DNA of 64,000 nt from an uncultured Bacilli bacterium (GTDB taxonomy: Bacteria > Bacillota_I > Bacilli_A > RFN20 > CAG-826). Below are positions 3,117-62,781 of the stretch, piece after piece (position 1 is the stretch's first letter; each line of letters starts with the position of its first letter). Position numbers and translations under genes: made by a program. The DNA is taken from NCBI GenBank assembly GCA_944327845.1, contig CALVHN010000001.1, positions 9,149 to 73,148 on the forward strand. Reading direction: 5' to 3'. The notes beneath the pieces are model-generated. The model worked only from the letters and a program-made list of their open reading frames with translations. It did no database searches and was not told where the DNA came from.

Positions 3117-5195
3117 ATGAAATTAGTTATTGTTGAGTCACCAACTAAAAGTCATACGATTAGTCATTATCTAGGAGAAGACTATGTTGTTGAAGCTAGT
3201 ATTGGACATATTAGAGATTTAGCTAAATCTGGTAAAGGTGGGTTTGGAGTTGATATTGAAAATAATTTTAAGCCAACTTATGTAGTATTAGATGATAAAA
3301 AAGATGTTATTAAAAATTTAAAAAAATTAGCCAAAAAATCAGAAGAAATATATCTTGCAACCGACCCTGATAGAGAAGGTGAAGCTATTGCTTGGCATTT
3401 AAGCGATGTTTTAAACTTACCCATTGAAGATACTAAACGTTTGGAGTTTCATGAGATAACTAAAGAAACTATTTTAAAATCAATTGAAAATCCAAGAACA
3501 ATTAATATGAATCTTGTTCATTCCCAAGAAGCAAGGAGAATTATTGATCGTATTATTGGTTTTAAATTATCTGGTTTATTGAATCAAAAGATTAAAAGTA
3601 AATCTGCCGGAAGAGTCCAATCTGTTGTTTTAAAATTAATTTGTGACCATGAAAAAGAAATAAATTCTTTTGTTCCTGAAGAATATTGGACAATTGAATG
3701 TTATATTCAAATTAAAAATAATGAATATCTATTAAATCTTATTTCAGTTGATAAAAAGAAACCTGAATTAAAAAATGAAGAAGATGCTCTTAATTTATTT
3801 AGACAAATTGGTGATAAAGTTAAAGTTTCTAATATTAATTTTACTGAACGACAAACTTCTTCAAAAGAACCTTTTAGAACATCAACTTTACAACAAGAAG
3901 CTTTTTCTAAATACAACTTTAAGACTAAAGACACCTCTTTATTAGCTCAACAACTTTATGAAGGTATTGAAACAAATGAAGGTTTAACTGGTTTAATTAC
4001 CTATATGAGAACCGATTCAACAAGAATTAGCGAAGAATTTGTTGATAAAGCGAAAGCTTACATCACTAATAAATATGGCGCCGATTATTTTAAAGGTGTA
4101 GCAAGTTCTAAAAAAATAAAACTTGCTCAAGATGCACATGAATGTATTAGACCAACATCTTTAGAAAGAACACCTGAATCTATAAAACCATATTTAACTA
4201 CAAATCAGTACAAACTTTATAAATTAATTTTTAATAGAACAGTTGCATCTTTAATGTCTGATAAAATTGATTTAGTAAAGACAGTTACTATGTTTTCAAA
4301 TAATGTTGAATTTAATTTAAAAGGTATTACTAATAAATTTCCTGGATATAATATTTTAAAAATTGAAGAAAAGGATAAAACCGAACAAGAATTACCTGAA
4401 ATCAACGAAGGTGAAGAATTTGATTTAATTAAAAAGGAAAAAAATCAACATTTTACAAAACCACCTGCAAGATACAGCGAAGGAAAAATTGTACGTTTAA
4501 TGGAAGAAAAAGGTATTGGAAGACCATCAACTTATTCTTCAACAATTCAAACATTACTTCAAAGAAAGTACATTTTATCGGAAAAAGGAATTTTATCACC
4601 AACCGAACAAGGAGTTTTAACTTCTAATGTTTTATCAAAGTATTTCCCTGATTTAATGTCTACTGAATACACTGCAAACATGGAACTATCTTTGGATAAA
4701 ATCCAAGATGGAGACCTTAATGAAGTACAGTTATTAAAAGATTTTTATTCAGATTTCATAATGCATTTTGATGAAGTAAAACAAATTATGTATAAAGAAC
4801 CACCAAAATTAACAGGAGAAAAATGTCCAGTTTGTGGAGGAGATATGGTTTATCGTCAAGGAAAATATGGAGAATTCCAAGCTTGTATTAATTATCCAAC
4901 TTGCAAATATATTAAAAAAGAAAAGAAAGAAGTTGAATTTTTAAATAGAACTTGTCCTGAATGTGGTTCTCCTTTAGTTGTTAGAAAAAATAAAAAAGGC
5001 GATGAATTTATTGGATGTTCAAACTTCCCAAAATGTCATTATGTTGAAAGTATGAAAAATGAAGAATTGGAAGAAAGAATTTGCCCTGATTGTGGTGGGA
5101 AACTTGTTTTAAAACATTCAAGACGAGGAAGCTTCTATGGGTGTAGTAATTATCCAAAGTGTACTCATGTTGAACCTTTAAAATCAAAGAAATAG
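3117..5195 (+). CDS. topA: DNA topoisomerase I with three C-terminal zinc ribbons
   Basis: TOPRIM N-terminus 'KLVIVESPTKSHTISHYLG', the active-site Tyr region 'LITYMRTDS', and three CxxC...CxxC zinc-finger repeats at the C-terminus. Confidence 0.9.
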   Translation: MKLVIVESPTKSHTISHYLGEDYVVEASIGHIRDLAKSGKGGFGVDIENNFKPTYVVLDDKKDVIKNLKKLAKKSEEIYLATDPDREGEAIAWHLSDVLNLPIEDTKRLEFHEITKETILKSIENPRTINMNLVHSQEARRIIDRIIGFKLSGLLNQKIKSKSAGRVQSVVLKLICDHEKEINSFVPEEYWTIECYIQIKNNEYLLNLISVDKKKPELKNEEDALNLFRQIGDKVKVSNINFTERQTSSKEPFRTSTLQQEAFSKYNFKTKDTSLLAQQLYEGIETNEGLTGLITYMRTDSTRISEEFVDKAKAYITNKYGADYFKGVASSKKIKLAQDAHECIRPTSLERTPESIKPYLTTNQYKLYKLIFNRTVASLMSDKIDLVKTVTMFSNNVEFNLKGITNKFPGYNILKIEEKDKTEQELPEINEGEEFDLIKKEKNQHFTKPPARYSEGKIVRLMEEKGIGRPSTYSSTIQTLLQRKYILSEKGILSPTEQGVLTSNVLSKYFPDLMSTEYTANMELSLDKIQDGDLNEVQLLKDFYSDFIMHFDEVKQIMYKEPPKLTGEKCPVCGGDMVYRQGKYGEFQACINYPTCKYIKKEKKEVEFLNRTCPECGSPLVVRKNKKGDEFIGCSNFPKCHYVESMKNEELEERICPDCGGKLVLKHSRRGSFYGCSNYPKCTHVEPLKSKK

Positions 5196-5198
5196 AAT

Positions 5199-6482
5199 AT
5201 GGCAGATTTTGTAAATGTTATTGGTGGCGGACTTGCTGGATCTGAAGCAGCTTATTTTTTAGCAAATCATGGTATTAAAGTTAAACTATATGAAAAAAGA
5301 CCACTGGTAAATTCTCCTGCTCATAACACCTCCTTATTTGGGGAACTTGTTTGTTCAAACTCTCTAAAATCACAAGCTTTAACTAATGCATGTGGGCTTT
5401 TAAAGGAAGAAATTAAGCATTTAGATTCATTAATTATTGAAGCTGCGCAAACAAGTAAAATTGAAAGTGGAGATTCACTTGATGTTGATAGAGATATTTT
5501 TGCTAATTACATAACTAGTAAGATAAAAAGCCATAAAAACATTGAAATTATTAATGAAGATGTTTCTGTGCTAAATCTAAACGAAAAAACAATTGTTTGT
5601 ACAGGTCCTTTAACTTCTGAATCTCTTGTTGAATATATTTCAAGTTTAGTTGGAGAAAAGGTTTTCCATTTCTTTGATGCAAGTGCTCCTATTATTAAAA
5701 AAGAATCAATCGATAGTTCAAAAGTTTTCACAAAATCTCGCTACGACCATGGAGAAGGAAAATACATAAACTGTCCAATGAATAAGGAGCAGTATCTAAG
5801 CTTTTATAACGAATTAATAAACGCAAAAAAAGCTCATGTTCATTCTTTTGATACTAATTACTTTGAAGGTTGTTTACCTATTGAAGTTATTGCAAGCAGG
5901 GGAGTCGATACTTTAAGATTTGGTCCTTTAAAACCAGTTGGTTTAGAAAACGAAGGTAAAAGTTATTATGCTGTTGTTCAATTAAGACAAGACGATTTAA
6001 TTGGAAACTTTTATAATTTATTAGGTTTTCAGACAAATTTAACTTACGGTGAACAAAAAAGAGTTTTCTCGATGATTCCTGGACTTGAAAATGCAAAATT
6101 TGTCCGTTATGGAACAATGCATAGAAATACATTTCTATATTCACCAAAAATGCTTGATGATTTTTTAAGATTAAAAAAATTTAAGAATATTTATATTGGT
6201 GGTCAATTAAATGGTGTTGAAGGCTACGTCGAATCTGCTGCAACAGGATTATTAGCAGCTTATTATTGCTTTGCTGACATTAAAAAAATTCCAATAAAAA
6301 AATTATCTTTTTACACAATATTAGGAGCTTTAGTTAATTATATTACACATACTGGGGTGAATAATTTTCAACCAATGAATGCAAATTTTGGTATAATTTA
6401 TAAAGCATCAACTACACCAAAAGAAGAAATTATAAATCGTTCATTAACGTTAATTAATGACTTTAAAAAGCAATTTATTTAA
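5199..6482 (+). CDS. trmFO: methylenetetrahydrofolate--tRNA-(uracil-5-)-methyltransferase TrmFO (Gid)
   Basis: FAD-binding 'VIGGGLAGSEAAYFLANHGIKVKLYE' and the conserved topA-trmFO-xerC order. Confidence 0.85.
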   Translation: MADFVNVIGGGLAGSEAAYFLANHGIKVKLYEKRPLVNSPAHNTSLFGELVCSNSLKSQALTNACGLLKEEIKHLDSLIIEAAQTSKIESGDSLDVDRDIFANYITSKIKSHKNIEIINEDVSVLNLNEKTIVCTGPLTSESLVEYISSLVGEKVFHFFDASAPIIKKESIDSSKVFTKSRYDHGEGKYINCPMNKEQYLSFYNELINAKKAHVHSFDTNYFEGCLPIEVIASRGVDTLRFGPLKPVGLENEGKSYYAVVQLRQDDLIGNFYNLLGFQTNLTYGEQKRVFSMIPGLENAKFVRYGTMHRNTFLYSPKMLDDFLRLKKFKNIYIGGQLNGVEGYVESAATGLLAAYYCFADIKKIPIKKLSFYTILGALVNYITHTGVNNFQPMNANFGIIYKASTTPKEEIINRSLTLINDFKKQFI

Positions 6483-51931: not shown

Positions 51932-54900
51932 ATGGCAGAAAAGTTGTTATTAGGTTTAGATATTGGAACTAATAGTGTTGGTTGGTGTTTAACAGATGAG
52001 AATTCGAAAATAATAAAAAAGAATGGAAAATATTTATGGGGAATTAGATTATTTGATGAATCTAAATCATGTAAAGATAGAAGAATTTATCGATCAACAA
52101 GAAGGAGATGTGCTAGAAGAAAACAAAGGTTAGCATTACTCCAAGATTTATTTGAAAAACCGATGTCTAAAATTGACCCATATTTTTTTAGAAGGCTTAA
52201 GGTTTCTCAAATTAAAAACGAAGATAGAAATGATGAATTTAATTTGAGTGAATATAAAAATAAATATTTATTCTCTGACCATCAAGAAGAAATAGAATTT
52301 TATAACAAATATCCAACAATCTATCATCTAAGATTAGCTTTAATTAATTCTAACGAAAAAATCGATTTAAAATATTTATATTTAGTCTGCGCACATTATA
52401 TTAAATATCGTGGGCATTTTTTATTCGAAGGACAAGATTTTAATGTTGAAAACGGTGCAAGCATTGCACAAAGTTTAAATTGTTTATTAAATGAAGATAA
52501 TGAAAATAATGTTTTGTTTGAAACTAAGGATCTCGATGAAATATATGATATTTATTCAAATAAAAAATTAGATAAAAAAGATAAAGTTAATAAAATTAGA
52601 GATTATTTATTTAATAAAGTTTATGAAGTAAATAATGATGAAAATGAAAAAATATATTTAGGATATATTGCTCAATTATTTTTAGATTCTAAAGTTGATG
52701 CTAAAAAAATTTATAAAGATAAGGACTTAGATTTAGATAATACAACAATAAGTTATGATTCTGATGATTTTGATTCGATTATTGATGAATTAATAAACGT
52801 CTCTTCTGATTATGATATAGATTCATCTTTTTTTGAAAATATAAAGGAATTAAAGAAAGTATATGATTACTTAAAGTTAAAAAATATTTTAGGAGATTCG
52901 ATTTATATATCAGAAGCAATTGTTAAAAGATTTGATAAACATAAGGAAGATTTAATAAAGTTAAAGAATTTTGTAAAAACAAATTTTGATAGAGAAACAT
53001 ATAAGAAGGTATTTATAAATGTTGATGATAAAGTTTGTAATTACCCTCATTTTGTCGGTTCTTCTTTAGTTAAAGGGAAAAAGAAAACAATTTCAAAATG
53101 TAAAAAAGATGATTTTTATAAATTTTTAGAAACTACATTAAATATTAAAAGAAATGAAATAGTTAAAGAAGAAAATGAATTAAGTGATAAAGAATATATT
53201 GAAAAAAGAATGTATGATGGAACTTTTTTAGAATTATTACGTTCAAGTCAAAATAGATTTATACCTTATCAATTAAATAAAAAAGAATTAGAAATTATTT
53301 TAAATAATCAATCTAAATATTATGAATTTTTAAATGAAAGTGATGATTATGGAACAGTTAAAGATAAAATAATAAGTTTATTAACATTTAAAATCCCATA
53401 TTATGTTGGTCCATTAAACGAATCTAGTAAATTTGCTTGGATTAAGAAAAAACAAAATCAAAAAATTACTCCTTGGAATTTTAATGATATTGTTGATAAA
53501 GATGCATCTGAAAATGAGTTTATTAAACGAATGGCAAATCATTGTTCTTATTTGTTCAAAGAAGAAACCTTGCCTAAAGAATCACTTCTTTATCAAGAAT
53601 ATGAACTTTTATCTACATTAAATAAACTTTATATAAATAATCAGCCAATAACTAATGAGATAAAAACTTTCTTAATTGATGTATATAAAAATAGAGGTAC
53701 TAAAATTAGTTTAAAAGATTTAAAAAGAATAATTAGTGATAGATTTGGTGATGGAAATGAAATAATTTTAACGACATCCAATGATAAAGAATTAGATGAA
53801 AATTATTTATCCGATTCTTTAAGTTCTTTTAAAAAGTTTTCTAATATTTTTGGAAAAAATTATGTTGAAAGTAATGTTGAAAAAATTGATCAAATAATTT
53901 CAATATGTACAATTATATCTGATAAAAATAGATTAAAAGATTATTTAATAAAAGAATTTAAATTGAATGAAGAGGATGCAATTAAAGTATCTAAATTAAA
54001 GTTTTCTAAATTTGGTAGACTTTCAAATAAACTTCTCTGTAAGTTAAAAGGAATCGATTCAAAAACTGGTGAAGTTATATGTGATAAGAGTATTATCCAA
54101 TTAATGAGAGAAACTAATCAAAACCTTATTGAAATTATAAATAATAAAAAATATGGCTTTCCTGCAGCAATTAATTTAGAAAATAGCGAATTTTTAAAAG
54201 AAAAATATGGAAATAAAGAATTATCTGATGAACAAAAGATTTTAGATTTCATTGATAAACTTTATATTTCTCCAAAATTAAAAAGACCATTAATTCAAGC
54301 AATGAAGATTATTAATGAACTTGAAAATATAATGGGTTCAAAAGAAAAAGGTAAAAGGTCAATCGATGAATATTATATTGAAGCAACTAGAGGACCAGAT
54401 ATAAAAGCAAAAGGTAAAGCAACAAAAAGTAGAAGGCAAAAGATGCTCGAAATTTATAAAGATGCAAAAGATTTTGTCGATGAATATGATAGCAGCAAAG
54501 CAATTTTATCTAATTTAAATGGAGTTGAGGATTCCAGATTAAATAGTAAAAAAGTTTTCTTGTATTTTAGACAATTAGGAAAGGATCTTTATACTGGTAA
54601 TCCAATTGATTTTGATAGATTAGAAACTGATTACGATATTGATCATGTATTTCCTCAATCTAAAATTAAAGATGATAGTTTTGATAATTTAGTTTTAACT
54701 TTAAAGGAAAATAATTCAGATAAAGGTGATATATATCCAATTCCTTATGATAGTTTTCGTGAAAAGCATAATTGGTCTAGTAAAATAAGAAATAGATTTT
54801 TTGAAAAACTGCATAAAAATAAATTTATAAGTGAAACTTTATATCATAGATTAACAAGACTAACTCCATTAACTGAAAATGAATTATTTAATTTTGTTAG

Positions 54901-56260
54901 TTCTCAAATAACAACTACATCTCAAGCAGTTAAAGCAATTAAAGATACAATATTGCAGTTTAAAACTAATAACGAAAATAAAGAGCCTGCTGTAATTTTA
55001 TCGAAGGCTCAAGTTATATCAGATTTTAGAAAGAATCATGATTTATTAAAATGTAGAAAAGCTAATGATTTTCATCATGCTCATGATGCTTATTTAAATT
55101 TGATTGTTGGAAGAGCCGTCAATGAGTATTTTACTAAATATATTGCTAGAAAATCTTATTTAAAGAATTTTGATATTTCTAAAAAATTAACAACAAATAT
55201 TAATAAATTTTTAGATAGTAAAGATTCTAAAGGCAGTGATTTAAATAGACCTAATATATATGATGGAGATTATCTAGTATGGGATTATAAAGATGAGAAA
55301 ACTTTGAATGAAATAAAATATAATATTTATCATAATTTTAATATTTTACATACAGTTAGAACTTATGAAAAAGCTGGTATATTTTCTCAAGTAACAATAT
55401 CTCCAAGCAATCCAAAAGGTTATGCATTATCAATTAAAAATTCAATAGGAAACCCATTATCTAATTCAATTAAATATGGCGGATATTCACAATTATCTTT
55501 TGCATATATGATGCTAATCAAAAACTTAGATAAAAATGATAAATATTTATTAATTATGGTTCCGAGTATTTATAAGGATAAATTGGAAACAAAGGAATTT
55601 AACGATTATGTTTTTGAAGAATATAATGTTAAAAATTTTGATATTATTTTACCCAAACTAAAAATAAACACACTGATTAAAGAAAACGAATCTGAGTTTA
55701 GGATAACAGGCAAAGCAGATGTAAGACTTGCATTAAAAAATAATAAATATGTGTTTTATAACGAGGATTATATTAAAACAATCAAAAATCTTTTTAAAAT
55801 AACAAATAAAATTTCTGAAATTGTTATCAATAAAAAATATAAAAATATTGATGCTTATATTAACGATAATTACAAACAAACATCTTTCGGAATTTATTTT
55901 GATGAAGAATTTATAAAATTAAACGGCGAAACTCTTATTACTAAAAGACAAATTGTAGATTTAAGTAATTTTTTGAAAAAAATTATAAAAAATAAGATAT
56001 ACGATTATGCTAGAAGTAGTTATGATACTATGGATAATTATTTGTCTTATGATAATGATTTATCTTTAATCAAAAATATGCTTATTTTAAAAGAGTGTAT
56101 TAATCGTTTACGAGATTCTTCTTTGACATTTAATCTCAAAGCGTTTGGAAAAGGAGTTATTTCAAGAGAAAGAATGCAATCGAATATTTCAAAGAAAATT
56201 TCAATAATTTATGAATCAACTACAGGATATTATCGAAAAGTTGTCTGGAGCAATGAGTAA
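51932..56260 (+). CDS. cas9: Cas9 (type II-A), 1442 aa
   Basis: RuvC-I 'GLDIGTNSVGW', arginine-rich bridge helix 'RRRCARRKQR', HNH 'DIDHVFPQSKIKDDSFDNLVLTLKENNSDKGD', and RuvC-III 'HHAHDAYL'. Followed by cas1-cas2-csn2 and the array. Confidence 0.95.
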   Translation: MAEKLLLGLDIGTNSVGWCLTDENSKIIKKNGKYLWGIRLFDESKSCKDRRIYRSTRRRCARRKQRLALLQDLFEKPMSKIDPYFFRRLKVSQIKNEDRNDEFNLSEYKNKYLFSDHQEEIEFYNKYPTIYHLRLALINSNEKIDLKYLYLVCAHYIKYRGHFLFEGQDFNVENGASIAQSLNCLLNEDNENNVLFETKDLDEIYDIYSNKKLDKKDKVNKIRDYLFNKVYEVNNDENEKIYLGYIAQLFLDSKVDAKKIYKDKDLDLDNTTISYDSDDFDSIIDELINVSSDYDIDSSFFENIKELKKVYDYLKLKNILGDSIYISEAIVKRFDKHKEDLIKLKNFVKTNFDRETYKKVFINVDDKVCNYPHFVGSSLVKGKKKTISKCKKDDFYKFLETTLNIKRNEIVKEENELSDKEYIEKRMYDGTFLELLRSSQNRFIPYQLNKKELEIILNNQSKYYEFLNESDDYGTVKDKIISLLTFKIPYYVGPLNESSKFAWIKKKQNQKITPWNFNDIVDKDASENEFIKRMANHCSYLFKEETLPKESLLYQEYELLSTLNKLYINNQPITNEIKTFLIDVYKNRGTKISLKDLKRIISDRFGDGNEIILTTSNDKELDENYLSDSLSSFKKFSNIFGKNYVESNVEKIDQIISICTIISDKNRLKDYLIKEFKLNEEDAIKVSKLKFSKFGRLSNKLLCKLKGIDSKTGEVICDKSIIQLMRETNQNLIEIINNKKYGFPAAINLENSEFLKEKYGNKELSDEQKILDFIDKLYISPKLKRPLIQAMKIINELENIMGSKEKGKRSIDEYYIEATRGPDIKAKGKATKSRRQKMLEIYKDAKDFVDEYDSSKAILSNLNGVEDSRLNSKKVFLYFRQLGKDLYTGNPIDFDRLETDYDIDHVFPQSKIKDDSFDNLVLTLKENNSDKGDIYPIPYDSFREKHNWSSKIRNRFFEKLHKNKFISETLYHRLTRLTPLTENELFNFVSSQITTTSQAVKAIKDTILQFKTNNENKEPAVILSKAQVISDFRKNHDLLKCRKANDFHHAHDAYLNLIVGRAVNEYFTKYIARKSYLKNFDISKKLTTNINKFLDSKDSKGSDLNRPNIYDGDYLVWDYKDEKTLNEIKYNIYHNFNILHTVRTYEKAGIFSQVTISPSNPKGYALSIKNSIGNPLSNSIKYGGYSQLSFAYMMLIKNLDKNDKYLLIMVPSIYKDKLETKEFNDYVFEEYNVKNFDIILPKLKINTLIKENESEFRITGKADVRLALKNNKYVFYNEDYIKTIKNLFKITNKISEIVINKKYKNIDAYINDNYKQTSFGIYFDEEFIKLNGETLITKRQIVDLSNFLKKIIKNKIYDYARSSYDTMDNYLSYDNDLSLIKNMLILKECINRLRDSSLTFNLKAFGKGVISRERMQSNISKKISIIYESTTGYYRKVVWSNE

Positions 56261-57132
56261 TGGGTTTTAGAACAGTAGTGGTTAAAAATAGATCTAAATT
56301 AGAAGTTTCATTAAACTATTTAGTTTGCAGAACTGTTGATGGAGAAAAAAGAATTTTACTCGATGAAATTGCTACTGTTTTAATTGAATCAACACAAGTT
56401 GCAGTTACTAGTTCTTTACTTTCAGCTTTGGCTGAAAAAAATATTAATTTAATTATTTGTGATTCTAAACATAATCCAGTTTCACAAATGTTAAGTTTAT
56501 ACGGAAGTTATGATGCTTATCATAAACTATTAAAACAATTATCTTTTAGCGAGGAAAGAAAAGGTAATATTTGGGCTGCAATTATTAATAGAAAAATATT
56601 AAATCAATCTCGTGTATTAGAGATTTCTAATAAAGAAGATAGTTATAAAAAACTACTTGAATATGCTTCAGAAATTGAACGAGGTGATATAACAAATAGA
56701 GAAGGACATGCAGCCAAAGTTTACTTTAATAGTTTATTTGGAAATGAATTTTCGAGAAATCAAGAAAGAAAAGAAAATAAATATCTAGATTACGGTTATT
56801 CAATAATTTTAAGTTCTGTTTCTAGAGCAATAAAGTGTATAGGTTATTATACTGAATTAGGTGTTCATCATATTGGTAAAACGAATCCATTTAATTTATC
56901 TTGCGATTTTGTTGAACCTTTAAGACCTTTGATTGATTATCAAGTTGTTTCAAATAAAGTTAATGATGAAAATTATAAAAATACATTTGTCGATATATTA
57001 AGTTTAAATGTTGACTGTGATAATAAAAATATGCTTTTGGATAATGCTATAAAAACGTATGTTCAGTCATTATTTAATGCTTTAGATAATAATGATATAA
57101 GCAAAATAAAGTGGATTAATTATGAGCTCTAG
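56260..57132 (+). CDS. cas1: Cas1 (type II)
   Basis: 'GFRTVVVKNRSKLEVSLNYLV' N-terminus typical of type-II Cas1. 290 aa. Overlaps the cas9 stop. Confidence 0.9.
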   Translation: MGFRTVVVKNRSKLEVSLNYLVCRTVDGEKRILLDEIATVLIESTQVAVTSSLLSALAEKNINLIICDSKHNPVSQMLSLYGSYDAYHKLLKQLSFSEERKGNIWAAIINRKILNQSRVLEISNKEDSYKKLLEYASEIERGDITNREGHAAKVYFNSLFGNEFSRNQERKENKYLDYGYSIILSSVSRAIKCIGYYTELGVHHIGKTNPFNLSCDFVEPLRPLIDYQVVSNKVNDENYKNTFVDILSLNVDCDNKNMLLDNAIKTYVQSLFNALDNNDISKIKWINYEL

Positions 57133-57442
57133 ATTTATGAGATTAGTATTATTTTTTGATTTACCTGTTATTAAAACTTCTCAAAGAAAAGCTTATACAA
57201 AGTTTGTTAAAGATATAAAGAAAATTGGATTTTATATGTTACAAGAATCTGTATATATTAAGATGTGTTTAGATTCACAAGCTTCAAATTCAACTATAAA
57301 CAAAGTGAAGGACTTAGCGCCAAGCGAAGGTAGTATAATGATTTTAATGGTTACTGAAAAAGAATTTTCAGAAATGAAAGTCGTATGTGGAGAAAGTATA
57401 TCAGATGTTATTACTACTTCAGATAGGGTTGTAGTATTATGA
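57122..57442 (+). CDS. cas2: Cas2
   Basis: 106 aa, 'MRLVLFFDLPVIKTSQRKAYTKFVKDIKKIGFYMLQESVY'. Overlaps cas1. Confidence 0.9.
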   Translation: MSSRFMRLVLFFDLPVIKTSQRKAYTKFVKDIKKIGFYMLQESVYIKMCLDSQASNSTINKVKDLAPSEGSIMILMVTEKEFSEMKVVCGESISDVITTSDRVVVL

Positions 57443-58095
57443 TTTTAAAGTTTAGAGGAATTAATTATTCTTTTGAATATTGTGGTGGAGATATTTCTTT
57501 TTTAGTCATTGAAAGTAGAGAATTTTACTGGAAGCTTTTAAATTCTTTAAATGAATTAAATGAAGATAATATATTTTTAATAGATGATAAAAAGATTGAT
57601 TTAAAAAATGCGATTTTATTTTTTGATAGATTATTCGATTTGGATCCAAATAGTAAAAAAATACTATCCTTAACTTATCAAGATATAAATAAAATGTATT
57701 TAAATGATTCAATCAAAGTTAAAATAAGTGTAGCTAATGAAATACTTTTAGGAATTTTAGATAAGTTAGCTCTTGATGTTGATTTTAAGGCTAGATATGA
57801 AAGTGATTTAACATTGAATGATGTTTTAAATTTATATAAATTTAGATATGAAATTGAATCTAAATCTTTTATTGAAATGTTTCTTCAATATATAAAATCG
57901 TTGATGGTTGTTATGAAATATAAGTATGTTGTGACATTAAATTTATTAGACTTTATTGATAAAAATAATCTAGATTTGCTAAGTAATGAGTTAAAAATAC
58001 TAGGTTTAGACTTAATTGATATTTCAAGACACTCTTATAAATTAGAAAAATATAAAGAAATTCTTATTGATAATGATTTATGCGAAATATCGTAG
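57439..58095 (+). CDS. csn2: Csn2 (type II-A signature protein, short form)
   Basis: 218 aa, placed between cas2 and the array and overlapping cas2 by 4 nt. Confidence 0.8.
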   Translation: MILKFRGINYSFEYCGGDISFLVIESREFYWKLLNSLNELNEDNIFLIDDKKIDLKNAILFFDRLFDLDPNSKKILSLTYQDINKMYLNDSIKVKISVANEILLGILDKLALDVDFKARYESDLTLNDVLNLYKFRYEIESKSFIEMFLQYIKSLMVVMKYKYVVTLNLLDFIDKNNLDLLSNELKILGLDLIDISRHSYKLEKYKEILIDNDLCEIS

Positions 58096-58098
58096 TAA

Positions 58099-58225
58099 AA
58101 TTATATTGATAAAATAAATTTTATCAAAAAATAAAGACGAATTATGTCTTTATTAAAGTTATTGTTTCAAGCCTAAAACAGGTAATTAATTCTAAAATCT
58201 CTGTTATTTGTTTATATAATTTGAG
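58099..58225 (+). promoter_or_regulatory. CRISPR leader
   Basis: AT-rich 127-bp region between the csn2 stop and the first repeat. Confidence 0.5.
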
Positions 58226-59571
58226 GTTTGAGAGTTATGTTATCTACGGTCGGTCTTGAACAACTAGAAGAAGATGTTTTAATGACTTATAGTTTGAGAG
58301 TTATGTTATCTACGGTCGGTCTTGAACTCAAGTTACGGATACACCGTTCCTTCAGTGTTTGAGAGTTATGTTATCTACGGTCGGTCTTGAACTTGAGATT
58401 GAGGTGCTTTTGCAAAATGATTGTTTGAGAGTTATGTTATCTACGGTCGGTCTTGAACATTTATTCTTTTCCGTTCTAGTAATTTTTTGTTTGAGAGTTA
58501 TGTTATCTACGGTCGGTCTTGAACATTATTTGGAAGTTCTGTTGCATCAATATAGTTTGAGAGTTATGTTATCTACGGTCGGTCTTGAACTACTTTAATA
58601 TGTAAAATGTTGTTCATCCGTTTGAGAGTTATGTTATCTACGGTCGGTCTTGAACATAACATCTTTACAAGGATCTTGCACACAGTTTGAGAGTTATGTT
58701 ATCTACGGTCGGTCTTGAACATATCTTGTTCATAGACTTGTCCATCTTCAGTTTGAGAGTTATGTTATCTACGGTCGGTCTTGAACTGTCTTTGATTTTT
58801 AAATCTGTCATAATTGTTTGAGAGTTATGTTATCTACGGTCGGTCTTGAACTAAAACTGGCATCATTTCCTTGATTATATTGTTTGAGAGTTATGTTATC
58901 TACGGTCGGTCTTGAACACTAATTCCTTTGCATTTGGTCCTATTGTGTTTGAGAGTTATGTTATCTACGGTCGGTCTTGAACCCTAGAAAGTATAATAAT
59001 TTTATGGATTAGTTTGAGAGTTATGTTATCTACGGTCGGTCTTGAACTTTTGTTCATTCTTTAGTCCTCCTATTGATGTTTGAGAGTTATGTTATCTACG
59101 GTCGGTCTTGAACTTAAACTGGCGTTTTACCTTGATTATATAGTTTGAGAGTTATGTTATCTACGGTCGGTCTTGAACAGTCTGTTCTTCTAAAATACTT
59201 GCCTGTGTGTTTGAGAGTTATGTTATCTACGGTCGGTCTTGAACAAGAACGATTTGAGGTGCTCACGGTATCTGTTTGAGAGTTATGTTATCTACGGTCG
59301 GTCTTGAACGCATCGTTTGTATCTTGGCTTGTGCTTTTGTTTGAGAGTTATGTTATCTACGGTCGGTCTTGAACATATTTCTACAAGCACATTTACTACA
59401 ATTGGTTTGAGAGTTATGTTATCTACGGTCGGTCTTGAACTTACTTTCTTTGATATAATAATTCTAGGCCGTTTGAGAGTTATGTTATCTACGGTCGGTC
59501 TTGAACCATTATCTAGATTAATCCATTCGCTACCGGTTTGAGAGTTATGTTATCTACGGTCGGTCTTGAAC
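58226..59571 (+). CRISPR. CRISPR array of 21 x 36-bp repeats (GTTTGAGAGTTATGTTATCTACGGTCGGTCTTGAAC) with 20 spacers of 29-30 bp
   Basis: Repeats counted directly at 58226, 58292, 58357, 58423, 58489, 58555, 58620, 58685, 58751, 58816, 58882, 58947, 59012, 59078, 59143, 59209, 59274, 59339, 59405, 59471, and 59536. All repeats are identical, including the last. Confidence 0.97.
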
Positions 59572-59602
59572 TCTTATATATTGTTAATCACGGATATAAA
59601 AT

Positions 59603-61190
59603 GTACATAAGGGGGATGCGGATATTTTTTTAGACTAATATTGATTATAATTTAACATAAATTCTTTTGGGGATAAATATCCTAATCGTCTCTTAATTCG
59701 TTTATTTTTAAACCAGATTAAATATTTTTCTAATTCTGTAATAAAATCATCACATGTTGTATATTTCCAATCATTTGGATAAAAGAACTCATTTTTAATT
59801 GTTCCAAAGAATCCTTCACACATTGAATTGTCTGGAGAACATCCCTTTCTAGACATAGATCTTTTATAACCATATTGTTCCATTAGCTTTATCCAAGAAT
59901 CTATTCTATAATGGAAACCTCTATCGCTATGAATTAGTATCCCGCAATCACCAATAATTTCATGAGCTTCCTTTAACATTTTATTAGTTAATTCAGAATT
60001 AGGAGATTTACCAATTCTCCAAGTAATAGGAGAACCATCGAAGCAATCAATAAGAGGGGACAAATAAACTTTACCATCTTTTAATGCGAATTCAGTTATA
60101 TCTGTAAGAGCTTGTTTATATGGTTTATTCACAATAAATTTTCTATTAACTAAGTTTTCAACTTGTGGACTTATTTCACCTTTATAAGAAGAGTACTTGA
60201 GTTTTGATTTTGGCATATAAACAAATAATTTTTCTTCTTTCATTAACCTAATAATCACTTTTTCAGAAATAACAACTCCATACGATTTTGACAACTCTTG
60301 TTTTACTCTTCTATATCCATAACATTCATAATTATTAAAAAATATTTCTTTAATGATTTTCCTTATAATTAAGTATTTATCAAAGTTTAGTCTTTTTATT
60401 TCATAAAAATATGTTGAACGTTTTAAATGAATTATTTTAAGCAACTCATTGATTTTATATTCTTCTTTTAAGGCGTTGATTATTTGAGTTTTTTCTTTAT
60501 TGCTTAATAGAGAATAATCAACGCCTATTTCTTTTTTTAATATTTCGTTTGCTTTTTTTAGAACTTTATTTTCAAGTTCGAGTTTTAAATGTTCTTTTCG
60601 AAGAGCTATTATTTCTCTTTCAAGTTCTTGTTTTGATTTATCTTTCTTTTTCATAATTGGTTCACCAGTTAGTTCTTTTTGCCACTCATATAAAGTAACT
60701 CTAGTAACATTATACTTATTAGCAACAGTAATTGCTGACGAATCTCTTAAAACTAAATCAACAATTGCTTTTTTCATATTTTCATCGTCCAATATCGTTG
60801 GCTTTTTATGAATTTTATGTTTTCTGGTCCATCTTTTATCTTTTTTTACCCATGATTTTAATGATGAAGGGGATGGATAACCAAATTTTCGGCATGCTTT
60901 AGTTATGTTTTCACCATGACTAAAGTAGTATTCTATTACAGACTCTTGTTCCTCTTTACTCCATTTTGATGATTTATTCCTCTTTCTTGAAATTAAGGGT
61001 TCTCCCTTTTTTCTTTTATCTCTCCAAGATCTTAATGTATAGCGATTAATCCCTAATGCTTTTGCGGTTTTAGATAATTGTCCATCATAGGTATCTAACA
61101 AATTTAATGCTTTTTCAATTTCTTCTATTTTGTGCATACTTGTCCTTTCTATTTAGTCCAAGTTTTTGTCTGCACTCCCTTTTGGTTAAA
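59603..61190 (-). mobile_element. IS3-family insertion sequence (about 1.6 kb) with imperfect terminal inverted repeats
   Basis: A single 500-aa transposase gene. Imperfect ~35-bp inverted termini: left '...AAGGGGGATGCGGATATTTTTTTAGACTAATAT' against right reverse complement '...AAGGGAGTGCAGACAAAAACTTGGACTAAATA'. Boundaries are approximate. Confidence 0.55.
59635..61137 (-). CDS. IS3-family transposase, fused OrfAB form
   Basis: Three N-terminal helix-turn-helix units, a leucine zipper ('LELENKVLKKANEILKKE'), then an rve DDE integrase core ('HSDRGFHY', '...CSPDNSMCEGFFGTIKNEFFY'). Confidence 0.75.
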   Translation of the reverse strand: MHKIEEIEKALNLLDTYDGQLSKTAKALGINRYTLRSWRDKRKKGEPLISRKRNKSSKWSKEEQESVIEYYFSHGENITKACRKFGYPSPSSLKSWVKKDKRWTRKHKIHKKPTILDDENMKKAIVDLVLRDSSAITVANKYNVTRVTLYEWQKELTGEPIMKKKDKSKQELEREIIALRKEHLKLELENKVLKKANEILKKEIGVDYSLLSNKEKTQIINALKEEYKINELLKIIHLKRSTYFYEIKRLNFDKYLIIRKIIKEIFFNNYECYGYRRVKQELSKSYGVVISEKVIIRLMKEEKLFVYMPKSKLKYSSYKGEISPQVENLVNRKFIVNKPYKQALTDITEFALKDGKVYLSPLIDCFDGSPITWRIGKSPNSELTNKMLKEAHEIIGDCGILIHSDRGFHYRIDSWIKLMEQYGYKRSMSRKGCSPDNSMCEGFFGTIKNEFFYPNDWKYTTCDDFITELEKYLIWFKNKRIKRRLGYLSPKEFMLNYNQY

Positions 61191-61370
61191 TATAGAATAC
61201 CTCTATCATTCGTTAAGGATAGAAACTATTAATGAAATATATCAAAGAAATTTTGATGAATAGTAGTTTAAATTTAAAAAATATAGAGAAAAAAATAAAA
61301 TAGCTAAACGAAATGGGGTGATATCATAGATTTTAATAAGTTATTAAAGGATTTTTTTGAAAAAGCTAAG

Positions 61371-61880
61371 GTGAATAATATCGACATATATAATGAAATT
61401 TCATTGCAATTGGAATTAGGAATATTTTTGAGAAGTCAAATTAAAGATTATAAAATCCAATTTGAAAGAAATATCTCTTTCTTTGGCATCACAGGCACTA
61501 CAAAACATGAAATTGACATTGTGATTTTTAATAAGGATAAAAAAGAGAAATATGCTATTGAACTGAAATTTCCTAAAAATGGCCAATATCCTGAAGAAAT
61601 GTATTCTTTCATTGAAGATATTGTTTTTATGGAAGAACTTAAACGCGAAGGTTTTACTAAGACATATACTTTAGTGGTTGTGTCTGATCCGTTGTTTTAT
61701 GAAGGCGGAAGGGTAAAAACAGGAATTTATGCATATTTCAGAGATAGTAAATCAATTACTGGGGAAATATCTAAACCTACTGGTAAGGATAAAGGCATTT
61801 CTCTTTTAAAAGTTAAAAACTCATATACTATCAATTGGAAAGATTGCTATTTAGGCAAGTATTACTTTCTTGAAATTTAA
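61371..61880 (+). CDS. hypothetical protein, possibly PD-(D/E)XK-like
   Basis: 169 aa from a GTG start. 'HEIDIVIFNK...YAIELKFPK' resembles a D...(D/E)xK nuclease core. Weak. Confidence 0.3.
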   Translation: MNNIDIYNEISLQLELGIFLRSQIKDYKIQFERNISFFGITGTTKHEIDIVIFNKDKKEKYAIELKFPKNGQYPEEMYSFIEDIVFMEELKREGFTKTYTLVVVSDPLFYEGGRVKTGIYAYFRDSKSITGEISKPTGKDKGISLLKVKNSYTINWKDCYLGKYYFLEI

Positions 61881-61904
61881 TAATTTAATACGAACTTGTT
61901 TCAT

Positions 61905-62210
61905 TTAAAAGTTGCCGTTGTAAGGGTGTGCAATGTATCAAAAGCCGTAGTATGTAGGCATCTTTATACAACATGTCTGATACAAACTTAGTCGATGACT
62001 AGGGGTGTGCAGACTTTTTTCATTTTTAGACATAAATAGCCACTTTTTAAAATTATGCCGTTGTTATAGTGGAAGTCAAATTCACTAAAATTCATCGAAA
62101 AATCATCATTTTTAAGTTTCACTTTTAAACGGCAGGTGTGCACTATTACACGGCAACCCCTTTTTGTACACCCTTGTACACCCCTAAACACGGCAACTGC
62201 ACACCCTATC
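61905..62210. repeat. GC-richer cluster of iteron-like motifs (GGGTGTGCA/GGGTGTAC and GTTGCCGTG) in both orientations
   Basis: Direct copies at 61924, 62003, and 62135. Inverted copies at 62166, 62175, and 62198. GTTGCCGT at 61911 and 62056, and its inverse CACGGCAAC at 62149 and 62189. Confidence 0.5.
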
Positions 62211-62409
62211 TTTATTAATAATATTGATTGACCATCTGGTTCTAATTGAGCTGGGTGGTCTTTTTTATACCTAAAAATATTTTTTGCTTTTTTTAATTTA
62301 TGCGCCCATCAAAATGTTCCTTAAAGCCTATAACGAGATGATTAGGAGTAAAGACCTTCTTATTACTAATCTTATATAAACAGTAAGCAAAGCTCTTGAT
62401 GTATCATCT

Positions 62410-62781
62410 TTGGATAAGCAAATAGAAGCATTATCTAATGAACTCAATGATATGTATAAAGAGTTTGAACTACTCGTTAAGATGAACGCGACCACGCAGC
62501 AAGATCAAACGATTTGGCGAAAAAAGTATGCAGAACTTGAGAATATTTATAAAAACAAAGAAGCAGAACTTAATTCACTTATTACTAAAAAGAACAAAAT
62601 CAAACTAAAAATTAATAAGTTTAATATCTTCATAAAAACACTTAAAAAAGGTGAACTCATCACTGATTTTGATGAAGAGATATTCAATTTCAATCTAGAG
62701 AAAGCAATAGTTCATAAAGATAAATCAATAACATTTAAGTTCTATTCTGGTTATGAAGTAACAATTAAGTCTGAAGGGTAA
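62410..62781 (+). CDS. hypothetical coiled-coil protein (TTG start); possibly the remnant of a longer gene
   Basis: 123 aa. The same frame upstream is open ('FLLFLIYAPIKMFLKAYNEMIRSKDLLITNLI') but interrupted by TAA at 62377. Confidence 0.3.
   Translation: MDKQIEALSNELNDMYKEFELLVKMNATTQQDQTIWRKKYAELENIYKNKEAELNSLITKKNKIKLKINKFNIFIKTLKKGELITDFDEEIFNFNLEKAIVHKDKSITFKFYSGYEVTIKSEG

Follow-up and report, generated by a model that had tools for sequence, protein, structure and literature searches.

A repeat-rich intergenic block in an uncultured Bacilli genome is very probably the junction of two integrated elements that target tRNA 3' ends

Results

The window analyzed here is a 64,000-nucleotide (64-kb) stretch of DNA from an uncultured Bacilli bacterium (GenBank assembly GCA_944327845.1, contig CALVHN010000001.1, positions 9,149 to 73,148), and our subject is a block of short repeats that fills an intergenic region of it at 61905-62210. 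This block very probably represents the joined right and left ends of integrated elements from a family that targets the 3' ends of transfer RNA (tRNA) genes, with the window copy being decayed and non-autonomous. The enzymes responsible are probably large serine recombinases that exchange strands at a CA dinucleotide and recognize the tRNA T-loop. We are little better than evenly inclined to see the repeats themselves as predicted binding sites that assemble or regulate recombination. Taken whole, an attP-like (phage attachment site-like) junction from a serine-recombinase phage family, with the repeats as accessory protein sites, is the explanation we would favor, with some reserve. The family consists of temperate phages and their internally deleted derivatives in uncultured gut Bacilli and Mollicutes.

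The repeat block is a composite in which 61905-61960 forms a right end (the P arm) and the sequence that follows forms a left end (P-prime) that continues with its terminator to 62314. In order, the window reads as the right end of one unit, with a gene for a protein of 169 amino acids (aa) as its last gene as in the related locus L002, and then the left end of a deletion derivative. The features of the junction are as follows.

61905-61933, plus strand: right-end subterminal repeats, GTTGCCGT(T) at 61911-61919 and GGGTGTGCAA at 61924-61933, directly abutting the core half-site TGTATCA
61934-61984, no strand assigned: attP-like attachment-site core, made of TGTATCA (61934-61940), N18, CA (61959-61960, the putative crossover), N17 and TGATACA (61978-61984)
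61975-62020, plus strand: terminator-like left-end hairpin (61975-62014) followed by a T-run (U6); -19.7 kcal/mol, z = -4.8
62056-62066, plus strand: partial motif B repeat TGCCGTTGTTA (GCCGTTGT site), direct; mean column identity 0.94 in 21 copies
62128-62207, no strand assigned: distal left-end repeat cluster, with ACGGCAGGTGTGCAC at 62129-62143, ACGGCAAC at 62150-62157, two tandem TTGTACACCC at 62164-62183, and ACGGCAAC plus TGCACACCC at 62190-62206
62230-62266, plus strand: strong intrinsic terminator closing the left end, 13 pairs and a T-run; -19.9 kcal/mol, z = -6.0
Motif GGGTGTRCA: direct copies at 61924 and 62003, inverted copies at 62165, 62175 and 62198

Homologs of the repeat block at tRNA genes

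We compared the window with ~25 related loci (written as L and a number) from metagenome-assembled genomes (MAGs) of uncultured gut Bacilli and Mollicutes and from viral contigs, using BLAST maps and a listing of the junctions. Searching with a pattern based on the repeats brought up true homologs in the viral contigs L013, L070, L082 and L044, and later L099, along with 20 loci in MAGs of uncultured Bacilli, Mollicutes, Acholeplasmatales and Ca. Caccosoma. In a viral scan with TGYACACCCNTGYACACCC, L099 was the one additional true copy and the remaining hits were chance matches or unrelated.

Window sequence 61967-62314, which comprises P-prime and its terminator, has counterparts of 80-93% identity that begin at the base following the CCA end of tRNA genes. 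P-prime follows at least nine different tRNA genes, those for tRNA-Glu (TTC and CTC), His, Leu (CAG, CAA and TAG), Ala, Cys and Gly as well as the transfer-messenger RNA (tmRNA) gene, in a single orientation and immediately after the encoded CCA; in L099 the host gene rpsD lies just upstream of the tRNA-His gene concerned. The P arm stands alone in L044, L122, L123, L125, L126, L129, L134 and L137, where it is followed by unrelated DNA that usually holds a terminator hairpin, and is joined to P-prime as in the window in L117, L122, L128, L132 and L134. In most loci the two halves lie 2 to 51 kb apart with cargo between them.

A complete member of the family is the 51,659-bp viral contig IMGVR_UViG_3300044556_000194, whose two ends are L013 and L137; the reading covered ~21 kb of this 51.6-kb prophage, towards its two ends. 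Its left end runs from a tRNA-Glu gene through P-prime and the terminator to a 64-aa gene (p64), a DUF2800/PD-(D/E)xK nuclease, an AAA_24 ATPase and a helicase, and in intact relatives generally the terminator corresponding to window 62230-62266 lies upstream of the phage early genes. Its right end encodes an HTH_3 protein, two serine recombinases of 431 and 526 aa with the Pfam domains Resolvase, Recombinase and Zn_ribbon_recom, a Schlafen/AlbA_2 protein and a 329-aa protein, after which comes the P arm ~120 bp from the end of the contig. A large serine recombinase is thus carried by a complete element of the window's family, while the window keeps only a fragment. Phage left ends of this family were found at tRNA-Glu(TTC), tRNA-Glu(CTC), tRNA-His and tmRNA genes.

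Other members are 2-kb "mini" elements that have both ends and no recombinase, for instance L125, which carries a Schlafen/AlbA_2 gene and a pyrophosphatase-like gene, and L126, which carries p64 and an AAA_14/DUF4143 ATPase. Just upstream of the tRNA-Gly gene that bears the L126 mini element, and outside that element, we observed a gene for a 386-aa protein (5122-6282) that is tyrosine-recombinase-like by eye and may belong to another integrated element using that tRNA region. On this comparison of loci, the family includes internally deleted, non-autonomous derivatives at various tRNA genes and in tandem arrays.

The window harbors one such deletion, in which the left end is fused to the 3' fragment of a recombinase gene.

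62314-62781, plus strand: 3' remnant of a large serine recombinase gene, residues 372-525 of 526, with an in-frame stop at 62377-62379

The identical fusion occurs at other sites in L115, L118 and L122, and another deletion endpoint (residue 284, after a 64-aa gene stub) is found in L121 and L127. The remnant (62314-62775) shows 88% identity (tblastn) to the 526-aa recombinase of L137/L044 and its DNA is 90% identical to L044 5116-5576. An open reading frame (ORF) at 62410-62781, described as a coiled-coil fragment in an earlier, sequence-only reading of this DNA, is part of the last 154 residues of this large serine recombinase, and the fragment has a weak match to the phage integrase family PHROG 95. 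Besides the 372-525 fragment, no second recombinase homolog was found in the window. The sequence-only reading had also raised the idea of an integrated-replicon remnant, and this is borne out: the locus is what is left of an integrated mobile replicon, with only the last 154 recombinase codons kept. Beyond the remnant, the derivative runs into a lipoprotein/InlB-repeat gene from 62980.

The probable attachment-site core

In the relatives the core reads TGTATCA-N17-CA-N17-TGATACA, with 17 nt on both sides of CA; in the window an extra C within 61941-61958, private to this copy, makes the left half-site spacer 18 nt. This arrangement and its N17 register hold in three families (the window's family; L221/L228; L131), so that imperfect inverted half-sites of ~20-25 bp around a central dinucleotide, as in an attP site, are present in the window and in all three. 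The second family (L229 6085-6320; L221 1-135; L228; L215-L227) has the core TATTAGAACGA...TGATAC as in the window's family together with other subterminal repeats, AGGGGGTGCACTCGTTAAACGG, and is present after many tRNAs within single metagenomes; in L229 an IS3-type insertion and a truncated serine recombinase gene lie behind the second-family left end. The third family is seen as a right end (L131 2380-2491) with the core CGTATCA-N17-CA, which is joined to a left end of the window's family, indicating that tandem arrays can mix families.

The target matches this core in spacing. In tRNA, the T-loop sequence G53-T-T-C-R57 lies exactly 17 nt before C75-A76, the same register as that of TGTATCA (GTTCR-N17-CA), which would account simply for the use of any tRNA or tmRNA gene that encodes its CCA. 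On the other side, of six right flanks that are not themselves elements, four have TGATAC or TGATAT in the N17 register, three of them exactly there and the fourth displaced by 1 nt. The tRNA and tmRNA ends (..CCA) and nearly all P arms (..GGCA) share CA, with the stand-alone P arm of L134b ending in GGTA. Past CA, the P-prime and right-flank sequences are unrelated in L122b, L123 and L126, which brings junction identity down to CA. From these junctions we infer that the crossover takes place at CA. A 2-bp crossover surrounded by four related half-sites is the pattern expected for a serine recombinase.

Repeats flanking the core

The repeats, GGGTGTGCA and GCCGT/(T)GCCGTKK, lie outside the ~51-bp core on both sides. 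Motif A, GGGTGTRCA, occurs five times in the window, all inside 61924-62206, where 0.05 copies are expected from whole-window shuffles. Relaxing it to the 8-mer GGTGTGCA adds a direct copy at 62136 and brings the total to the six copies, three direct and three inverted, of the sequence-only reading. Motif B, GTTGCCGT, occurs three times in the window (direct at 61911, inverted at 62150 and 62190; 0.06 expected from whole-window shuffles), and there are partial copies of this type, TGCCGTTGT at 62056 (direct) and ACGGCA at 62129 (inverted). The four copies reported earlier for this motif, two in each orientation, are reached only if TGCCGTTGT is counted, as the exact copies are one direct and two inverted. 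Shuffling with local composition had been named as the result that could overturn the claim of repeats beyond chance, and here the claim held: in 5000 dinucleotide-preserving shuffles of the 306 bp alone, the 9-mer GGGTGTRCA had a mean of 0.012 and a maximum of 2, and the 8-mer GTTGCCGT a mean of 0.012 and a maximum of 1, against the 5 and 3 observed. The raised GC content noted before is likewise present, at 37.6% in the 306 bp and 25.4% in the window.

Both ends keep their repeats in the relatives. The right-end repeat sequence is conserved in L002, L044, L122, L123, L125, L128, L129, L132, L134 and L137, and the unit GTTGCCGTT occurs once or twice per right end, varying by copy. At the left end, the 3' arm of the first hairpin carries the repeat GGGGTGTGCAG (62002-62012); in L117 and L119 this hairpin is retained with other inner sequence and the GGGTGTGCAGAC arm is invariant. 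The distal cluster is nearly invariant across 21 copies, in which the tandem 10-bp unit TTGCACACCC is single or double. Both tandem TTGYACACCC units of the window (62164-62183) have a private T for C, which suggests that a mutated unit was re-duplicated by slippage or gene conversion. In an alignment of the 21 left ends, mean identity was 0.968 in motif columns and 0.901 in spacers (p = 2e-4).

The other two families have repeats of their own. A left end of the second family has three direct AGGGGGTGCACTCGTTAAACGG spaced 30-31 bp apart, a right end of that family has two direct copies of a 32-bp unit, and a right end of the third has three direct TTGCAACCCCCT spaced 20-21 bp apart. Given that these repeats are direct, helically phased, family-specific and co-vary with the ends, they point to protein-binding DNA sites and could not form RNA helices. 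Together with the conservation of the motif columns above the spacers and the variable copy number of the 9-10-bp units, this makes protein-binding DNA sites the most likely nature of the non-random repeats in the window, one of the roles that the sequence-only reading had proposed.

The two hairpins have distinct settings. In integrated copies the first left-end hairpin takes the position of the tRNA gene's own terminator. The stem of the terminator at 62230-62266 is preserved across copies by G-U/A-U/G-C changes.

Neighboring genes

Two further features lie to the left of the repeat block.

61371-61880, plus strand: 169-aa ORF, last gene of the left-hand element (right-end cargo), with faint PD-(D/E)xK-type matches
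59635-61137, minus strand: IS3-family transposase ORF (Pfam rve, HTH_Tnp_1); the insertion sequence (IS) extends to ~61208 and is context, not part of the repeat element

The 169-aa ORF has 876 homologs and belongs to a widespread family of ~185-aa hypothetical proteins. In L002 the same gene is likewise followed by the P arm and has an ATG 48 nt upstream of the start of the window's ORF, where the window has ATA (window 61323-61373 vs L002 1650-1700); the window gene therefore appears to have lost its start and may be either a pseudogene or translated from a downstream GTG. We considered whether the repeat element travels with this gene and rejected the idea, as only the near-identical copies L001 and L002 carry the element and distant homologs adjoin DUF3800, single-stranded DNA-binding protein (SSB) and other genes without it. 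In L003-L006, a 74-aa ORF regularly comes before the gene for a homolog that shares 63% identity with the 169-aa protein, a DUF3800 gene lies downstream in three of the four contexts, and a group II intron-type reverse transcriptase (RVT_1 plus GIIM) is nearby in one. These contexts suggest that the protein family inhabits variable, island-like neighborhoods.

The IS3-family element interrupts the left-hand element or its flank between a CRISPR (clustered regularly interspaced short palindromic repeats) array and the 169-aa gene, and homology to L002 resumes at 61209. The sequence-only reading was thus right about the small possible nuclease and the coiled-coil ORF as flanking genes, while its placement of the IS beside the coiled-coil fragment does not stand, because the IS lies to the left of the 169-aa ORF. 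The same IS is also present in L122 and in L132, where it has entered the left end immediately behind the first hairpin and its T-run. IS3-family insertions are seen repeatedly within or next to left ends (L132 1-80, L229 6325-7535, L117 2141-3387, window 59600-61208), which hints at a target preference for terminator-like hairpins. Further to the left, window 51932-59572 holds a complete type II-A CRISPR-Cas locus that encodes Cas9 (1442 aa), Cas1 and a Csn2-like protein; in its array the 36-nt unit GTTTGAGAGTTATGTTATCTACGGTCGGTCTTGAAC recurs ~21 times, and the IS begins within ~60 bp of the last repeat. A trans-activating CRISPR RNA (tracrRNA) or other CRISPR-linked RNA was rejected as an identity for the repeat block, as the IS and a gene lie between it and the array and the relatives sit at tRNA genes without CRISPR loci.

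A minus-strand ORF of 67 aa (61988-62191) runs through the repeat cluster. It is open in 14 of the 21 left-end copies and broken or frameshifted in the other 7, with a 10-bp indel shifting its 5' part, so we rejected it as a gene; it is probably a by-product of the GC-rich conserved motifs. A conserved coding gene at this place had been named beforehand as a finding that would speak against the non-coding view of the block, and these interruptions leave that view intact.

Alternative explanations

Several other roles could be imagined for such a block, and the one we take most seriously, though we consider it unlikely, is a phage replication origin in which the repeats are iterons for a phage initiator in the circular phage and the att position is incidental. 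As at iteron origins, short repeats are densely clustered in intergenic, GC-richer DNA of a mobile replicon; there are 11 of them in both orientations, some phased at 10 bp, and the array lies directly upstream of the DUF2800 nuclease, AAA_24 ATPase and helicase module. The unrelated phage L104 also has a GGTGTACA array around a ATATATAT tract; this array (3520-3700, GC 0.49), which looks like an origin or operator, holds at least seven GGTGTACA-type repeats in both orientations between an HTH-like (helix-turn-helix-like) gene and the next gene, and resembles motif A. However, in three families the repeats flank the crossover and directly adjoin the core half-site, and they are kept, with above-average conservation, in derivatives that lack any replication genes. 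Beside the iteron pattern of three or more direct repeats of one 17-22-bp unit at regular spacing, the picture is mixed: the 9-10-bp units of the window's family are of mixed orientation with one tandem pair, and the second and third families do have two to three direct repeats of 12-32 bp at 20-32 bp spacing. No initiator gene was identified among the genes read downstream in the intact phages, and the stretch between the repeats is no AT-richer than the genome (GC 0.31 at 62000-62150 vs 0.25). A Rep-dependent plasmid origin or an oriT, as the sequence-only reading had it, finds no support either: no Rep or relaxase gene is present at the region, the ORF list and a Pfam scan gave no Rep-like ORF flanking the repeats, and the two halves occur separately. 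BLASTN of the element gave no match in a phage collection and, in a plasmid collection, a single 42-bp match to a haloarchaeal plasmid (E = 0.009) that we take as chance and not as a homolog. Somewhat less probable again is an operator array, across the att junction, for a phage repressor or regulator acting on the recombinase genes or the early operon. Once the phage is circular, the array has the early genes on one side and the recombinases and cargo on the other; a gene for an HTH_3 (Cro/CI-type) protein lies close to the recombinase genes, and the repeat sequences are family-specific; yet the strong terminator at 62230-62266 separates the array from the early genes and there is no conserved promoter over the repeats, the best candidate (62079-62052, minus strand) not being conserved.

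A structured non-coding RNA (ncRNA), either transcribed together with the upstream tRNA or produced at the circular junction, and held together by helices between complementary repeats, was offered as an alternative by the sequence-only reading and now seems quite improbable. The plus strand of 61895-62275 does fold well (-106.2 kcal/mol, z = -5.3, against z = -1.5 for the minus strand), nested complementary segments are present (62002-62012/62197-62206 and 62057-62071/62141-62154), and the region comes right after tRNA genes and has its own terminator. The strand asymmetry, however, stems from the window-only TGTACACCC, a C-to-T change that creates G-U pairs where the 20 relatives have TGCACACCC. 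An Rfam 15 scan gave nothing at gathering score and no meaningful match even at E <= 10, where the best hit reached 21 bits against a 50-bit cut-off. RNAalifold on the 21 copies found no covariation (term +0.32 kcal/mol), although the copies are too similar for this to be a strong negative; the motif helices are invariant, and double changes occur only in a small hairpin (columns 67-79) and the terminator. Further, the terminator-like hairpin 16 nt after CCA would halt read-through, the repeats of the sister families are all direct and unable to pair, and in most copies the 5' partner, the P arm, is tens of kb distant. A tyrosine-integrase attP with the repeats as arm-type sites, as in lambda, is less credible still. 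A site of ~300 bp with repeats on both arms and tRNA targeting is classical for tyrosine integrases, and the tandem 10-bp sites resemble P'1-P'3. Against this, junction identity in L126, L123 and L122b is only CA, which could not supply a 6-8-bp overlap, the far (right) end holds no second copy of a tRNA 3' segment, and the recombinases seen in the elements are of the serine type (within the ~21 kb of prophage read), the sole tyrosine-type gene (L126) lying outside its element. The least probable reading of all is a miniature inverted-repeat transposable element (MITE) or other self-contained 300-bp palindromic unit. An imperfect inverted repeat of ~25 bp does lie close to both edges (61910-61933 vs 62174-62198) and many copies exist in related genomes, but the halves are apart in most loci, a motif search found no further copy of the element elsewhere in the window, and the junctions show no target-site duplication; a MITE, which the sequence-only reading had named as what further genomic copies would indicate, is contradicted by the separate occurrence of the halves.

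We also rejected two other candidates. IS200/IS605-style single-strand transposition (target ..CCA, right end ..GGCA) does not agree with intact members that are 50-kb phages with serine recombinases, a symmetric core and no HUH transposase seen, and integron attC-like cassette sites do not agree with these phages or with the symmetric core.

Discussion

We propose that one or more serine recombinases would bind four similar half-sites, each presenting GTWTCR 17 nt from the CA crossover, and that one of these half-sites would be the universal T-loop of the tRNA (G53-T-T-C-R57), 17 nt from C75-A76. An element-encoded protein bound to the flanking repeats would then assemble or regulate the recombination complex. 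That protein could be a subunit of a recombinase or the second recombinase, or else a factor for directionality or regulation. The two hairpin and T-run terminators may give the tRNA transcript a terminator again and shield the phage early operon. More tentatively, and we would sooner bet against this than for it, a recombinase lineage may have evolved to read the T-loop GTTCR at its constant 17-nt distance from the encoded CCA and to exchange strands at C75-A76. A single phage family and the satellites derived from it by deletion could then settle at virtually every tRNA or tmRNA gene and accumulate in tandem, with arrays of family-specific repeats, bound by the recombinase pair or a partner protein, that build or gate the synapse, unlike all characterized serine integrases.

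Several observations weigh against this proposal or limit it. In classical serine-integrase sites, the motif bound by the zinc-ribbon domain lies ~5 bp further out in attP than in attB. No such difference in spacing was found here, as GTWTCR lies 17 nt from CA in the P, P-prime and tRNA (B) half-sites and most B-prime half-sites; all four half-sites share one register, unlike the classical model. This register is nearer to the similarity of joint and target in TnpX-type systems, TnpX and TndX being serine transposases, than to phage-integrase asymmetry. To our knowledge, sites of 40-50 bp suffice for the characterized large serine integrases, which dispense with accessory sites, so the repeats would be atypical. 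The excess conservation of the motif columns is modest and was measured among closely related copies (80-93% identity), and the left-end cluster, just upstream of phage replication and recombination genes, would also fit an origin or operator. The link between recombinase and site is drawn from sequence and, with ~21 kb of the 51.6-kb prophage read, there may be another integrase. Finally, a search of metagenomes for the vacant site, using tRNA-CCA joined to the presumed host flank of L137/L044, recovered no empty attB. Rather, this presumed flank was found after Leu, Arg, Gly, Ala, His, Trp and other tRNAs, with a conserved hairpin, a T-run and further conserved sequence following it, which indicates that the flank is the left end of the second family and that the right-end junctions of L137 and L044 are tandem junctions.

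Among known systems, the elements resemble those of large serine recombinases in having recombinases with Resolvase, Recombinase and Zn_ribbon_recom domains, a ~51-bp core with imperfect half-sites around a dinucleotide, and no long duplicated target; unlike well-studied serine integrases, they have arrays of short repeats flanking the core and all four half-sites in one register. They also share with lambda attP and the tRNA-targeting tyrosine integrases a ~300-bp site, short repeats on both sides and the use of tRNA 3' ends. They differ from these in that only serine recombinases were seen in the elements, no tRNA segment is duplicated and junction identity goes down to 2 bp. In contrast to iteron origins, the 9-10-bp units are of mixed orientation and split by the crossover, there is no Rep gene, and the array persists without replication functions.

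The ends of IS607 carry several short subterminal binding repeats. In a study of this serine transposon family, the ends have no long terminal inverted repeats, the target is not duplicated, and the synaptic complex of the transposon ends is built from multiple recombinase dimers (Chen et al. 2018, PMC6188088). IS607 is the closest precedent and best mechanistic analogy for repeats that flank a serine-recombinase crossover. The likeness is by analogy, as IS607 transposases are small, have an N-terminal DNA-binding domain and show minimal target specificity, whereas the recombinases here are large, have C-terminal domains and use a defined target. Some large serine recombinases are multi-targeting (Durrant et al. 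2022, PMC10083194) and likewise combine one recombinase lineage with many target loci. The targets here, however, are unified by the T-loop and the encoded CCA, Pfam found no DUF4368, a domain typical of that clade, and the word tRNA is absent from the main text of that paper. The nearest natural parallel is provided by the Dehalococcoides ssrA islands (McMurdie et al. 2011, PMC3146451), which have a large and a second, smaller serine recombinase, target the 3' part of the tmRNA gene and form tandem arrays that include recombinase-less islands thought to be mobilized in cis or trans. These islands differ in having the single target ssrA, insertion at the T-loop and a 20-bp direct repeat, while the elements described here have at least 10 targets, a junction at the terminal CA and no such repeat, and their intact members are phages. 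In a limited literature search, we found no description of a serine-recombinase family acting on the generic tRNA 3' end or of such repeat-flanked cores.

On its own, the repeat block in the window is of modest interest, as a scar where two decayed integrated elements meet beside an IS and a CRISPR locus. The tRNA targeting and repeat-studded ends of the family as a whole look unusual. If our reading of the attachment sites is right, the target of a serine recombinase would be a structural constant of all tRNAs and not one gene, which would explain lysogeny at multiple sites and the build-up of tandem islands in poorly studied gut Bacilli and Mollicutes. It would also amount to a short and portable target rule, GTTCR-N17-CA, of interest for integrases as genome-engineering tools, and should the flanking repeats turn out to be required, the view of large serine recombinases as enzymes that work without accessory DNA sites would come into question. 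The element family is a variant of serine-recombinase integration that merits focused study.

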